Origin: Scophthalmus maximus
Taxonomy: Eukaryota
Assembly: GCF_022379125.1 (NCBI RefSeq)
Contig: NC_061519.1
Location: 23,983,101-24,047,100 of the forward strand
Reading direction: 5' to 3'
DNA: 64,000 nucleotides
The notes beneath the pieces were generated by a model. It was not told the origin of the DNA. It made no database searches and saw only the letters and a program-made list of their open reading frames with translations. Each line of letters begins with the position of its first letter. The stretch's first letter is position 1. The translations under genes and the position numbers were made by a program. Shown in pieces: positions 53,213 to 62,199 of the stretch.

Positions 53213-53636
53213 TGGAAGATGAGGTGCATTGATCATTAGATGTTACATTTGTTGTGGTGATGTTGTATAACTGGCTGGGAGGGGGAGGTAAAGGGAGGGG
53301 TGGGGGGTGTTTGTGTGTTTTTTCAGGGGGGAGGAGGGGTTGGTGGTGGTGGTGGTGGTGGTTGGGTTGTCGATATATAAAACAATAGACAATCTAAAAA
53401 CCCCACACATTGCTCTCTTTGACTTTCCTACCCCCTCTAAGCTGTGTGGTGCAATACCTCGGTTTTTTACCAATACTAACTAAATGTGTGTGTGTGTGTG
53501 TGTGTGTGTGTGTGTGTGTGTGTGTGTGTGTGTGTGTGTGTGTGTGTGTGTGTGTGTGTGTGTGTGTGTGTGTGTGTGTGTGTGTGTGTGTGTGTGTGTG
53601 TGTGTGTGTGTGTGTGTGTGTGTGTGTGTGTGTGTG
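53213..53636 (+). repeat. Inverted-repeat partner 1: ~275 bp of unique sequence with an internal (GGT)n, then (GT)n at 53485-53636
   Basis: Its reverse complement aligns to 61749-62199 at ~96-97% identity (see findings). The identical artefact ORFs MLSLTFLPPLSCVVQYLGFLPILT.. (plus strand here) and MLSLTFLPPLSCVVQYLSFLPMLT.. (minus strand at 61691-62008) confirm the match. Confidence 0.85.
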
Positions 53637-55839
53637 TTTTCGAACTAGCTCCTCTCCACTCGTTTTGTACAGATGTCTCTAAACTCCTTGGTCTTGAATC
53701 GCGGGGCACCGATGCCCCGTCTGCATTGAGACTGACGACGTCTTTAGATGAGAATGTTTTTTTTGTTGTTGTTTTTTTTTTTCAAAGAGCCACCACAGCA
53801 GCACCTGCATCCCCCCCGAGATATGGACAATCTTGCCTTCTACTCTGGTATAAGAGACAAATTGAATTTTTATTTATTAAAATTGTAAATATGTAATGCA
53901 ATTCAAGAAAAATGGCTTTTGGTCTCTGTCTGTTCAATATACTGTTTCTAAGCTCCAATCTTTTGTATGTCTCAGAAATGGTTTTTTATATGTATTTTTT
54001 ACAATAAATATGTGTGCGAGATGTTTTGTGAACGTCTTTGTTTTGTGTCTCTGATTGTCGGTGACGTGTTTGTGGTCGTTTGTGGAGCAGAAGTAATGGT
54101 GGAAATTCTCACTTTTCACTCAGCCCGTTTGCACAGGGAGGGACCTTTTTTCTTTCTTTCTTTCCTCATTTCAAACCATCAAAAAGTGAAAGCCGGCGTA
54201 ACAAATGACACCCACATTTAAACACAAGGAGTTTTTATCGCAGAGCCTCCTCAAGCACAACACTGTCGTCGTTCTCTGACACGAGTGATCCAGCTGAACA
54301 AGGTAACAGGTATTCTACGATTTTAATTCATTGACAGCAAACATTTGAATAATCTTAATCCACTATTATCTCATCATGCAGTTGATGAAGTTTGGGGTTT
54401 TATTTGCTGTAAGTTTTGAGATCTCTGGTAGCAGATGTCTCAGGGATGGAAACATCAAAATTTGAAAAAAAGATTTGGGTGAACTGATTTTAAGTGTTCG
54501 GAGTCAGAGCAGCGAGTGTAACTGTAATAATTAATCTTTTGGACTTCATTTTTTTTTATAAATTTTTTCATTCTAATTCTACAGTAAATCAAAGGGAATA
54601 CGACTCTGTGCCCTAAATAATAATCGACATGTCTCTGTTCACTGTGTGTCGCTTCCTCCAAGAACAGGAACTTAAACGTTAAGATAAAATGAACTAGATT
54701 TAAAATAACATCTCTGCAAAACAATGGGCTTAAAATATAAATAAAATGTACAAAATATACAAATCAAAACATCAGTGATGTTACGATTAAACTGAACACG
54801 TTTGCACGAACGGGTAAATTGCTCGTTTTAAGGGTTTAGTACAGTGAGCTATGGTGAATGTAAATCTACCAGATGTTAATATACAGTATAGTTTTATATT
54901 TCACTGCAGACACATGTCACAGGTGGAAATAATAAAATCCTGTTTCCAAAAATAAAAAATTCAACCTTTAATAAATGTGAATAGTTCAATACACAAATCC
55001 AAAGATGATAAAGTTTTTAAACTGAATGATATGACGCAAAAAGAGGTTCCCACAATGTTCGCTGCTCTCAAGAGAAGCTCGAGTTCCACTTCCTAATGTT
55101 TATTATGCTCTTGAGCAACGAGTATGCAGCAAGTCTGGTTGTGGTCAAACATTCAGAGCTGATGTAAGCCACCGGAATTATATTACAAAATATTATCATT
55201 ATATAAACATGGAGCGTCCCCACTTCTGCTTCTTTGCAGATGTAGGGACAATTTCATATCTTTTTTTTTCCGAACTTTTTTTAAAAACATATAACAGAAT
55301 ATTCCCTGACATTGGACATAAGGGAAAAATATATAATAATACTAATACAAATAATAAATAATGATACAAATATTAAATAAATCTAAATAAAATACAATAA
55401 GAATTGTGAAATGTATGTACGTACATACTCAGTTATACACATGTACATACAATCAACACAAATTAATAAATAGCTGATAAATTAAATTAAGCAGAATAAG
55501 TGAGAATTCACCCAAATGTTGCAGTGGAGCAGGTTCATTTACATAGAAACCTATGACCTTTCCTGTGAATCTCATCCAATGTAATATGTTACATCAACAC
55601 ATTGCATCTTATTGGACACTCAGGTATTGTGTGACCATCTTTGAATGAAAGTATAAAAAATATCTTTCATTTTTTATTGTATAGTTTTCACTTCTGATTC
55701 TGCTCCCATTCTTAAAGAACTTGTTTTTTATTTATTTTTCTCCTTACTGGCTTTTTAATTTGCTCTGTCTTTCCCCTCATTTCTCTACTTTCTCTTTTTG
55801 CGAACTCCTTGGTTCTAAAAACACGATTGGGATGCTGAA

Positions 55840-56151
55840 ATGACTGAACCTCGTCTTTGGCCCCCAGTTCCCTCCACAATGTCCGACATGGCCGTCACAT
55901 CCAAGGAGACGCAGGACGCCCCTGGCTCCGACACGTCTGCCCCACCACCACCACCATACTCTTACCAAGGGCAGCAGCCTCCGCCCTACACCACAGACCC
56001 CGCGATGTACTTTCCACCCAAGACTGAGGCGACCTGCATCAACCAGCCAGGCGCTGGGTACATTTGCCCAGAAGCCCAGTGGGACGAGACTCCCATCCCA
56101 GCCTCTTCCTCATTCGACGACAAGACAGTGAGAAGAGCATTTGTTCGAAAG
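55840..56151 (+). CDS. TMBIM-family protein (Bax-inhibitor/Lifeguard family, GRINA/TMBIM1-like), exon 1: Pro/Tyr/Gln-rich N-terminus ending ..DDKTVRRAFVRK
   Basis: Matches the conserved pre-TM1 motif D(D/E)(K/R)x(I/V)R(x)AFIRKV of GRINA and TMBIM1. Donor gtttg follows. The alternative start ATGTCCGAC at 55879 is possible. Confidence 0.6.
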
Positions 56152-57213
56152 GTTTGTTTTCTGAGTTTGGTTTTGTTTTTGGCTACTAATCTCCAGAATA
56201 TCTGCAGTTATTCAAAACAAAAAAAAATGATTTTACAGTATTTGGTGTTTCACGTCTTCTCACGGGAGCCCTCTTCTTAAAACAAACTTCCCAACCTGAA
56301 GACGGGGCCCAAATAACAGGGGGTTTGAGATGATTAACAGATGCTTTTGATGTTTATTGATGAATATAAACTAATATGACCTGTAGAAATTATTATTATT
56401 ACTATTAAAATACACCAATCTGAGGAAGAACAAAATAAATCATAGATATATGCAGCCTGTTAAAAGAGGCCTGTAGTTTCAGGGGTCAGAGGGTCGAAAA
56501 GGTCAGGAACCATTGTCTCGCACAAATGAGCCAAAACTATGAATCATGACAAGAAAAAATCACGTTGATTCAAAAGCCATCTATTAAGTAAAGAAGGAGA
56601 AGGGATTCTAATTATTGCGTCAAGCAAAGTATCTGCCCTGAGGATTATTGAGCTGATCAAGGTGACGTGTCAGGATAATGGTAAAATGTCCCTGTTTCTA
56701 TATCTAAGTTACATTTTTTTCAGGCACGAATGGAAACCATCTTAGTTTTTAAAGCCATAGTATTTTCCAGCTTAATGATAGTTAAATAAAAAAGAGAAAT
56801 TACACAGATTTTCCTTTTTGGGTGACAAGAAAAAATCATGTCTTGATTTTGGAAGACGTACCGAGTTGAGTTTCTTAAAACGGCCCTGGGACTTGACACC
56901 TTTGTCAAGAAGGGTTTCTGGAGAGTGAACTCAAGTGTCATGCAGCCTAGAAAGCACACGAATAATCATACATTCTTATTTTTAATCAGTTAAGTGCTTC
57001 ATTTTTCCGACATGAAAGTGCTTTCCTTCCCACGAAAGGTCACATATCATGTGTATCATTCTCAAATCAAAAAAACGTTTCCCTTTGTTCTTAAAATCCA
57101 TGAAAATCTTAAGCGTTATGCATATTACTATTTTTAAAACACAAGGACCTTTCGCCGCAGCTCACTTATTAATGAAACTCTTCTCCCCCCGCCCCCCCCC
57201 CTCCGCCGTGCAG

Positions 57214-57414
57214 GTGTTCTGCATCCTGACGCTGCAGCTGCTGTTCACCTTCAGTGTGGTGTGTGTGTTCACCTTCTCCAGCGTGGTCAAGGAGGCGGTG
57301 CAGACCAACCTGTGGGCTTACCTCAGCTCCTTCATCGTCTTCGCTGTGGTCGCCATCACCCTGAGCTCCTGCAAGTCCGTCAGCCGCCGTCACCCCTGGA
57401 ACATAGTGGGACTG
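57214..57414 (+). CDS. TMBIM-family exon 2 (VFCILTLQLLFTFSVVCVFTFSSVVKEAVQTNLWAYLSSFIVFAVVAITLSSCKSVSRRHPWNIVGL)
   Basis: Aligns with GRINA [60 protein letters not shown]. Acceptor ccgccgtgcag and donor gtgagt. Confidence 0.75.
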
Positions 57415-61198: not shown

Positions 61199-61234
61199 AT
61201 ATATATATATATATATATATATATATATATATAT
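61199..61234. repeat. (AT)n microsatellite in a PARP2 intron
   Basis: Direct reading. Confidence 0.9.
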
Positions 61235-61618
61235 TACTGTACATAACTCAACAGTATATAACTGTACTTTACTCCTCTCGGGTTGCCAGTTTTGTTGCAA
61301 GGTTTGTTTTGTAAATGCTAAATATGCTAATTGCATTTTATTTGTGTTGAAAATGTTTCTGAATATTTTCAAAGATTAATTTGTGAAACTCAAAATTTTG
61401 TGGTTGCGTCCATTTTTTTTGGGGGGGGGAGGGTATTGGGTGCAATATTTTCAAGCTTTAATTTTTAAGTAATCCAAAAGCATTCAGATTAGGTTACATT
61501 GTTTTTGTAATCCAATGGATTACGTTTATGATTACAAAAATTATCATGTACTTTGTATTCAGTAACTGACTACAGGTCAAAGTAATCTGACTGTTTCAGT
61601 GTAGTGAGGCAGACTAAC

Positions 61619-61743
61619 AGTGTGACGGAGTTCTGGGGGTCCGGTCCGGTCTGTCCCAGGCCCTTGGTGCTGTGTTTTCCAGTTGGCAGATTATTGGCCT
61701 CGTAGTCGGCATCTAGCAGCTCGTGACAGTCTCCCAGTGCAAC
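61619..61743 (-). CDS. parp2: PARP2 catalytic-domain exon (VALGDCHELLDADYEANNLPTGKHSTKGLGQTGPDPQNSVTL)
   Basis: Matches PARP2 (L)SEVALGQCNELLEANPKAEGLLQGKHSTKGLGKMAPSSAHFVTL. Donor gttagt leaves phase 2 (ct|g = Leu). The acceptor AG lies directly after the (TG)n tract, which is an unusual GT-rich 3' splice context. Confidence 0.65.
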
Positions 61744-61748
61744 CTGCG

Positions 61749-62199
61749 ACACACACACACACACACACACACACACACACACACACACACACACACACAC
61801 ACACACACACACAAACACACACACACACACACACACACACACACACACACACACACACACACACACACACACACACACACACACACACACACACACACAC
61901 ACACACACACACACACACACACACACACACACACGCAGTTAGCATTGGTAAAAAACTGAGGTATTGCACCACACAGCTTAGAGGGGGTAGGAAAGTCAAA
62001 GAGAGCAATGTGTGGGGTTTTTAGATTGTCTATTGTTTTATATATCGACAACCCAACCACCACCACCACCAACCCCTCCTCCCCCCTGAAGAAACACACA
62101 AACACCCCCCACCCCTCCCTTTACCTCCCCCTCCCAGCCAGAGTTATACAACATCACCACAACAAATGTAACATCTAATGATCAATCCACCTCATCTTC
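61749..62199 (-). repeat. Inverted-repeat partner 2: (CA)n at 61749-61934 plus ~265 bp, the reverse complement of 53213-53636. Lies within a PARP2 intron.
   Basis: See the feature at 53213-53636. Differences from its partner are a few substitutions, (CCA)5 versus (GGT)7, and a 2-bp indel. Confidence 0.85.

Follow-up and report, generated by a model that had tools for sequence, protein, structure and literature searches.

In the turbot (Scophthalmus maximus), a block of conserved non-coding sequence that lies downstream of a ZNRF gene is present a second time, in inverted orientation, in an intron of PARP2. The most probable origin of this pair, to which a probability of about 0.7 may be given, is a local inverted duplication in the turbot lineage (on the Scophthalmidae side), by DNA-templated repair from the first copy (copy A) to the second (copy B), with junctions in GT-rich sequence. 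The event looks like an ordinary accident of DNA repair; neither a mobile element nor a novel type of system seems to lie behind it, and no new class of element or system is revealed. It provides a clean natural case of a small inverted duplication for which comparative sequence allows the polarity, the donor and recipient and the context of the junctions to be read. The locus-specific inverted duplication proposed in the first-pass annotation is supported. All coordinates refer to the window, i.e. the whole stretch of 64,000 nucleotides (64 kb) that was analysed.

The copy A unit (277 bp; 53208..53484, + strand) ends at its 3' side in a (GT)76 microsatellite (53485..53637, + strand). The copy B unit (270 bp; 61937..62206, - strand) is separated from the PARP2 acceptor by (GT)93, which is (AC)93 on the + strand (61749..61936, - strand). 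Tandem Repeats Finder gives the two tracts as (TG)76.5 at 53485-53637 and (AC)93 at 61749-61934. The duplicated block is limited exactly by the microsatellite on one side and by GAGTGTGG on the other. A repeat search of the window places the inverted arms ~8.1 kb apart; measured exactly, 8111 bp lie between their inner ends (53638-61748) and 8999 bp between their outer ones, so that the bracketing arrangement described earlier stands, but not the size of 8.3 kb given for it.

When 53150-53700 was compared with the reverse complement of 61700-62280 by BLASTN, the arms were 96% identical (416/432, 8 gap positions, 702 bits). Without the microsatellite, the units (53208-53484 and 62206-61937) are 95.7% identical over 276 columns (E=5e-125), and after alignment by MAFFT the same base is found at 264 of the 271 aligned positions (97.4%), with seven substitutions and two indels. 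Three of the seven substitutions lie at the junction between unit and microsatellite (TAAA vs TGCG). The longest perfect tract shared by the arms measures 114 bp within the unit; within the microsatellite it is ~120 bp. No third copy of the unit was found among the significant BLASTN matches in the window. Formal alignment thus gives no sign of the low identity that would have spoken against a high-identity inverted pair, and the pair is real in three turbot assemblies.

The inverted repeat is no assembly artefact. Microsatellites of 150-190 bp are difficult to assemble, and the two older turbot assemblies, GCA_003186165.1 and GCA_006346445.1, are interrupted precisely here, each having an N gap in one of the two copies, as a mis-joined or duplicated repeat around the microsatellites might also produce. 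However, these two assemblies also have copies A and B, identically placed and oriented, which makes three independent assemblies, and the bases specific to each paralog, including the seven substitutions, recur in both wherever they can be read: the copies that were sequenced through show every difference between A and B, and the two copies shortened by N gaps show the leading differences. An artefact has practically no probability on these grounds. The CT indel and the (GGT)n count differ among the assemblies in the manner of normal alleles.

Copy A lies downstream of the stop codon of a gene for a ZNRF1/2-like RING ligase (P0126), the last coding exon of which, with the stop codon, was located by tblastn at 50258..50317 (+ strand). 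Conservation across species extends past this stop codon to ~54050-54082, and an AATAAA is present at 54003. Copy A is therefore probably included in a ZNRF 3'UTR of ~3.7 kb (50318..54030, + strand), in agreement with the earlier placement of this arm in a ZNRF-like 3' flank or 3'UTR. This assignment rests on conservation and the AATAAA, because the long Logan contigs with ZNRF (L006 and L007), considered as transcripts, proved to be genomic; they contain introns and stop short of the unit. Copy B lies, as had also been noticed, in a PARP2 intron, and its microsatellite directly adjoins the acceptor. The intron (610 nt; 61744..62353, - strand) consists of a unique 5' part of 147 nt, the unit, (GU)93 and CGCAG, and only CGCAG stands between copy B and the acceptor AG.

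The bracketed segment contains the whole of a lifeguard-1-like gene of the GRINA/TMBIM family (five coding exons; CDS 55879..59343, + strand; 100% match to the turbot proteins P0001 and P0121), as annotated at first, and the last two coding exons of PARP2, instead of the single one previously counted. These are the penultimate coding exon (61619..61743, - strand) and the last one with the stop codon (60210..60369, - strand), which carries the catalytic-Glu motif YNEFIVY. Jointly, the two exons (61743-61619 and 60369-60210) match positions 116-199 of the 199 positions of the Pfam profile for the PARP catalytic domain. ZNRF (+ strand) and PARP2 (- strand) both carry the unit in the same sense, the unit first and then (GU)n; their RNAs are therefore not complementary. 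Consequently, the suggestion that the arms may pair as a hairpin in pre-mRNA fails for normal transcripts, since they belong to different transcription units and are in sense orientation in both; only an 8-kb read-through transcript would contain the two arms in one RNA.

The polarity of the duplication may be deduced from comparison with other fishes. An unbroken alignment of the copy A unit and both of its flanks is obtained with halibut (L003, 7098-7653) and sole (L004, 6508-6915), and in both species the match is syntenic, between ZNRF and lifeguard-1. Identity to halibut and sole is 88% in the 5' flank, 73-76% in the unit and 72-78% in the 3' flank, with no drop at the edges of the unit. 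The microsatellite at this site is only (GT)4 in halibut and sole and (GT)76 in turbot. While copies A and B are 97.4% identical, either of them is only ~75% identical to halibut or sole, which indicates that the copying event is much younger than the split of these families. At 53461 and 53475 the outgroup base is kept in copy B and copy A is derived. B was therefore copied from A in an older state, and no homogenisation of the two is under way. Among the lifeguard-1 homologues no scophthalmid relative was found, the 90% cluster consisting of turbot only.

The site of copy B is empty in the orthologous PARP2 intron of halibut, sole, Seriola, Lates and Toxotes. The BLAST segments that flank the insertion join at a single coordinate in halibut (L003, 15324) and in Seriola (L005, 16490), and the alignments of sole, Lates and Toxotes have no unit in the intron. 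In each of the five outgroups the same acceptor is immediately preceded by nothing more than a GT-rich tract of ~5 to 55 nt; a GT-rich tract at this acceptor is thus common to six species. As judged by these alignments, copy A is the ancestral and copy B the derived one, the insertion of B is specific to the turbot side, and (GT)93 beside B descends at least in part from the ancestral tract. The comparison extends to five species, all less closely related to turbot than brill, megrim or topknot. The presence of one or both copies in related species, which had been recommended as a check, is thus resolved for halibut and sole, both of which have A but not B.

The same comparison bears on the view, raised in the first-pass annotation, that the arms belong to a dispersed short repeat family, SINE-like or otherwise non-autonomous, with a microsatellite tail, and represent two independent insertions. 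Like many retroposons, and like microsatellite-associated interspersed elements in general (SINEs, retroposons and microsatellite families with shared flanks), the unit has sharp boundaries, ends in simple repeats and is present in more than one copy, and the outgroups have an empty site for B. If these were SINEs or retroposons, however, each copy should be an insertion, and an empty site is found only for B. The flanks of copy A are seamless in halibut and sole, so that A is no recent insertion, and yet it is 97% identical to B. Independent acquisition of the tails by the two copies is likewise not supported, since A and its flanks are orthologous in halibut and sole and B was inserted into a pre-existing GT tract. 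The two known copies are only 8 kb apart. The 64-kb window has no extra ones, and ~115 kb from the orthologous loci of five species yielded none other than the orthologue of A.

Transposon hallmarks are likewise absent. ARAGORN finds no tRNA gene (0 genes) that could represent a tRNA-like head, which also leaves the unit without a promoter of this type. Rfam gives 0 matches at the gathering score, the unit having only sub-threshold chance matches, and so neither a Pol III head (tRNA/5S/7SL-like) nor a different RNA-derived module is recognised. There is no terminal inverted repeat of a MITE or DNA transposon in 53180-53500, only a weak internal pair of 20 nt. No target-site duplication is seen either: the flanks of B (..GCTTTCTT, then unit-(GT)n, then CGCAG..) and those of A are without a direct repeat. 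Searches of sequence collections in which fish DNA is barely represented, and which are therefore weak negatives, gave no match for the concatenated translated ORFs of the unit among 5.8 billion proteins and 0 matches each for a 31-mer and a 22-mer of the unit in the JGI metagenomes. A dispersed family is thus quite improbable, mainly because copy A is syntenic conserved sequence.

Copy A is probably in the ZNRF 3'UTR and hence in the mRNA, which would allow copy B to be a partial retrocopy, reverse-transcribed from the 3'UTR into the PARP2 intron. Such an origin is very improbable, considering that B is an internal fragment of 270 bp without the conserved distal UTR block (53775-54050), that it has neither a poly(A) tail nor a target-site duplication but ends in (GT)93 followed by CGCAG, and that both of its ends are in GT-rich sequence. 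In addition, its source is only 8 kb from the target, a nearness that retroposition does not favour.

Templated repair accounts for the product as follows. The ancestral PARP2 intron would have had a GT-rich tract immediately before its 3' splice site. At a distance of 8 kb and in inverted orientation, the conserved DNA downstream of ZNRF would have offered a donor segment of 270 bp with GT-type sequence at both ends, namely TGTGTGAGAGAGTGTGG at the 5' end and at least (GT)4 at the 3' end. The event may have started with a break in the PARP2 GT tract or with a fork stalled there. A + strand 3' end of (AC)n could then have paired with (GT)n of the + strand next to the ZNRF segment, and the segment would have been copied by synthesis, after which GT-rich (micro)homology would have led the nascent strand back to the broken PARP2 tract. 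The pathway may have been synthesis-dependent strand annealing (SDSA), ectopic gene conversion, or an equivalent template switch of the FoSTeS/MMBIR type, a known class of template switching at breaks and stalled forks. The product predicted from this scheme, i.e. the 5' part of the intron, the unit inverted with respect to its donor, (GT)n, CGCAG and the exon, is the one observed. Both the precise pathway and the order of the long (GT)n at A relative to the event are what we infer from this reconstruction.

A templated insertion should leave an intact donor and have an empty recipient, and here the donor A is intact and conserved in flatfishes and the recipient site of B is empty in five species. 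The aligned sequences further place the 3' boundary at GT repeats, which are present in the donor as well as in the recipient. The 5' junction reads TGCTTTCTT followed by GAGTGTGG in turbot and TGCTTTGTGTG.. in the outgroups, with a shared similarity of the GTGTGG type. The donor 5' flank, which is GT/GA-rich and reads ..CATTGTGTGAGA (53190..53207, + strand), is a candidate for the microhomology at this second junction. This microhomology is suggestive, and the junction is not clean. Among the points that speak against the repair scheme is the present length of the microsatellites, 76 and 93 units, when the outgroups have no more than (GT)4 at A.

The class of templated insertion and template-switch mechanisms is treated in PMC8421209 and PMC11724301. 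The turbot event resembles this class in its intact nearby donor, fragile-repeat target, (micro)homology (clear at the 3' junction, suggestive at the 5' one) and lack of a target-site duplication, and in an inverted orientation that follows from strand polarity. It differs in being germline and evolutionarily fixed, in its length of 270 bp (the experimentally described insertions are usually much shorter, according to PMC11724301), in a pathway that is reconstructed, and in that a dinucleotide microsatellite, and not a few bases, provides the homology at one junction, where it would have served as the anchor.

ZNRF (+), lifeguard (+) and PARP2 (-) have the same order and orientation in turbot, halibut and sole, and therefore no inversion accompanied the event. 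Some natural inversions have inverted duplications at their flanks, and the arms, being inverted, on the same chromosome and 96-97% identical, might accordingly be taken as scars of a staggered-break inversion or as the substrate of recurrent NAHR inversion of the 8-kb segment at present. Either is quite improbable. The orientation of the bracket is the same in halibut, sole, Seriola, Lates and Toxotes and in three turbot assemblies, the PARP2 exons are collinear across copy B, and uninterrupted identity between the arms is at most 114-120 bp. Furthermore, an inversion would cut off the exons for positions 116-199 of the PARP profile, among them the catalytic Glu motif, and should therefore be selected against. 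NAHR-mediated inversion, as suggested earlier, is thus possible in principle, but the collinearity of the three turbot assemblies and all the outgroups offers no evidence of it. The arms share with the inverted low-copy repeats of NAHR their location on one chromosome, inverted orientation and high identity around genes; they differ from classical ones in being far shorter (~270 bp of unique sequence plus microsatellite), with perfect tracts of <= ~120 bp and no inversion in the assemblies or relatives examined. They may be regarded as a latent, probably deleterious inversion substrate, since inversion would sever the catalytic end of PARP2.

As for the host intron, Lin et al. (2016; PMC4691745) described (AC)m-(GT)n structured introns, which are typical of fish and in which the GT repeat masks the branch point as well as the polypyrimidine tract. 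The PARP2 intron resembles them in having a GT repeat immediately upstream of the 3' splice site, but it has no AC repeat near the 5' splice site, none being found in its 147-nt 5' part. The defining bridging hairpin is therefore impossible, and the intron was not assigned to this bridged class.

The last 195 nt of the intron are described as pure (GU)n without adenine, and on going upstream from the 3' splice site one first meets an A at a distance of 196 nt, in the GCTAAC that ends the unit. All adenines of the 212-nt AG-free zone before the acceptor (in GCTAAC and TTTAC) are within the inserted copy, from which the predicted branch point most likely comes for this reason. It is conceivable, although doubtful, that a conserved 3'UTR block ending in GCUAAC, which resembles a consensus branch site, was co-opted as a branch-point module of PARP2, and that microsatellites are recurrent homology handles by which adjacent sequence moves between nearby loci in teleosts. 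In that case the exon would have remained spliceable, thanks to the insertion, while the GU tract expanded. The effects of the insertion are probably neutral. Owing to the duplicate flanks, a microsatellite marker or primer placed in the unit is a two-locus one in turbot.

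The two arms of the inverted repeat are 416/432 identical (96%, 702 bits) when positions 53150-53700 are compared by BLASTN with the reverse complement of 61700-62280. Copy A consists of a 277-bp unit on the plus strand (53208-53484) followed by (GT)76 (53485-53637), and copy B of a 270-bp unit on the minus strand (62206-61937) followed by (GT)93 (61749-61934), which reads (AC)93 on the plus strand. Aligned with MAFFT, the two units match at 264/271 bases (97.4%), with seven substitutions and two indels between them. Their homology ends abruptly at GAGTGTGG on one side and within the microsatellite on the other, and no third copy of the unit is found within the 64-kb window.

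The arms are separated by 8111 bp. This interval contains the entire lifeguard-1-like gene (CDS 55879-59343, plus strand), whose spliced translation matches turbot 'protein lifeguard 1-like' (P0001, P0121) at 100% identity, and the final two coding exons of PARP2 on the minus strand, 61743-61619 and 60369-60210, the former being next after the intron that hosts copy B (62353-61744). The repeat is present as the first-pass annotation described it, and that observation is confirmed; the interpretation given there is partly supported. The annotation had placed a whole TMBIM-like gene between the arms, correctly, together with the last PARP2 exon, where there are two.

The duplication is real. Both copies occur, in the same positions and orientation, in two further turbot assemblies, GCA_003186165.1 and GCA_006346445.1. 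The window differs from these by 0.2-1.4% and is thus a third sequence. The paralog-specific substitutions are found again in both assemblies wherever they are readable; variation of the ordinary allelic sort is seen at a CT indel and in the (GGT)n count. The copies do act as assembly breakpoints: N gaps lie in copy A of the former assembly (about 7418-7726 of the extracted locus) and in copy B and its microsatellite in the latter (about 17150-17495), which shows that the region is awkward to assemble. An assembly artefact is nevertheless contradicted by the presence of the duplication in three assemblies.

The history of the two copies was derived by comparison with five orthologous loci, those of halibut, sole, Seriola dumerili, Lates calcarifer and Toxotes jaculatrix. 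In halibut and sole the unit is present at the syntenic position between ZNRF and lifeguard-1, and the alignment with turbot copy A is unbroken across both unit boundaries, with identities of 88% in the 5' flank, 73-76% in the unit and 72-78% in the 3' flank. At the site of the turbot (GT)76, both species have (GT)4 only. Copy A is ancestral. Because conserved sequence extends from the stop codon of the ZNRF1/2-like RING ligase gene (P0126; 50315-50317, plus strand) to about 54050-54082, with an AATAAA at 54003, copy A most probably lies within the 3'UTR of ZNRF, which would then measure about 3.7 kb. The unit also contains a strongly G-rich, G-quadruplex-like stretch and an imperfect 20-nt inverted pair (53274-53293, GCTGGGAGGGGGAGGTAAAG; 53423-53442, CTTTCCTACCCCCTCTAAGC), of which the C-rich arm alone is conserved in halibut and sole.

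The site of copy B lacks the unit in all five outgroup species. The BLAST segments flanking the insertion site abut at one coordinate in halibut and in Seriola, and no unit is seen at this site in the alignments of sole, Lates and Toxotes. A GT-rich tract alone directly precedes the PARP2 acceptor in all five; it is expanded to about 55 nt in halibut, short and weak in sole, reads TGCTTTGTGTGTCTGTG(T/C)GTGGTTGCAG|G in Seriola and Toxotes, and is the same in Lates except that it ends in GGCTGCAG|G. The turbot acceptor side consists, in order, of TGCTTTCTT, the unit, (GT)93 and CGCAG|G. Copy B is therefore derived. It is 97% identical to turbot copy A as against about 75% to the halibut and sole orthologues of A, and at 53461 and 53475 it keeps the outgroup base that is changed in A. 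Copy B thus stems from an older state of A in the turbot lineage, and the two have since drifted apart with no homogenisation between them. Over this sequence, A and B are about one tenth as distant from each other as turbot is from halibut, assuming a clock and ignoring constraint on A.

The first-pass annotation had also raised the alternative that the arms are members of a dispersed repeat family. The conservation of copy A at its syntenic position makes this unlikely; copy-number proxies (proteins and metagenomes, in which fish DNA is sparse) were negative as well, but are weak. A ZNRF retrocopy is contradicted by copy B being an internal fragment, lacking a tail and lying close to its source, and duplication at an inversion breakpoint by the collinearity of the locus with all outgroups. 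The pair is a lineage-specific, microsatellite-anchored local inverted duplication.

The arrangement matches the expectations of DNA-templated repair with respect to donor, recipient, product and the lack of transposon marks. The donor segment has GT-type sequence at both ends, the recipient is a GT tract in opposite orientation 8 kb away, and the product lies inside that tract; no target-site duplication, poly(A), terminal inverted repeat or pol III-like head accompanies the insertion. The PARP2 GT tract may have broken or stalled a fork, whereupon its plus-strand (AC)n 3' end would have paired with the plus-strand (GT)n beside the ZNRF segment and been extended through that segment, and the new strand would have rejoined the far end of the break by re-annealing via GT-rich (micro)homology. 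These steps predict the plus-strand order seen, in which (AC)n precedes the unit in reverse complement. Of the seven A/B substitutions, three fall exactly at the unit/microsatellite junction (TAAA vs TGCG), a cluster compatible with a junction made within a short proto-microsatellite. Microhomology at the 5' junction is a candidate, the junction being not clean enough to serve as proof. Candidate pathways are SDSA/ectopic conversion or a FoSTeS/MMBIR-type switch. DNA-templated insertion is an established class of mechanism (PMC8421209, PMC11724301), in which the insertions observed experimentally are usually shorter than the turbot copy. The duplication adds one more case to a known type of rearrangement, and is probably neutral.

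The intron that hosts copy B closes with (GU)93 and CGCAG and lacks a polypyrimidine tract. Its last 195 nt contain one A, that of the acceptor AG; the next one upstream, 196 nt before the splice junction, belongs to the GCTAAC closing the inserted unit, and the closest upstream AG is 214 nt away. All adenosine branch-point candidates in the AG-free zone therefore belong to copy B, and the nearest branch-site-like motif, GCUAAC, comes from the insertion. A GT repeat directly before the 3' splice site is known to be typical of fish (PMC4691745). The turbot intron nevertheless does not carry the 5' AC repeat by which the bridged (AC)m-(GT)n class is defined. Just upstream of the GT tract, an intronic block (62207-62300, minus strand; ..ACATCACACGATG..CCCAGATGTGA.GCAGCACTGTTTCAGT..) is conserved in turbot, halibut, Seriola and partly sole, which is unusual for an intron interior.

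Two consequences had been proposed for the arms. An NAHR inversion is conceivable, and would cut off the catalytic end of PARP2, since the two bracketed exons account for residues 116-199 of the Pfam PARP catalytic profile, which has 199 positions; the longest perfect tracts, however, are only 114-120 bp, and every haplotype seen is collinear. A pre-mRNA hairpin is not expected: in the RNAs of ZNRF (plus strand) and PARP2 (minus strand) alike, the unit has the same orientation and precedes (GU)n, so that the two cannot pair as complements, and the arms do not occur together in any normal transcript.

Several other features of the region may be mentioned. A perfect 573-bp direct repeat (44445-45017 and 45072-45644, period 627 bp) precedes ZNRF exon 1 by a few hundred bp. 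Its building block is a T-rich 26-28/54-bp minisatellite, and it reflects either tandem duplication in the very recent past or a duplication introduced by the assembly. (AC)98 (7294-7489) is followed after 40 bp by (TG)36 (7530-7601) of opposite polarity, and the pair could fold into a hairpin or cruciform of some length. An intronless 332-aa ORF (2464-3462, minus strand) matches Pfam ApoL (apolipoprotein L; E=4e-37). Gene content at the locus differs between groups: the immediate neighbour of lifeguard-1 is ZNRF in the three flatfishes, whereas a large NLRP1-like gene with FISNA-NACHT-FIIND domains, and also CARD in Toxotes, lies upstream in Seriola (L005 1-7701), Lates (L008 1-7857) and Toxotes (L009 1-6711). 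TEP1-like exons (TROVE, NACHT, WD), judged by eye only, are spread over roughly 20-42 kb of the minus strand, and in halibut, Lates and Toxotes an Rsm22 (METTL17-family) gene adjoins PARP2. Human TEP1, PARP2 and METTL17 are all at 14q11.2; the surroundings of PARP2 described here, the Rsm22 gene included, would be consistent with that grouping.
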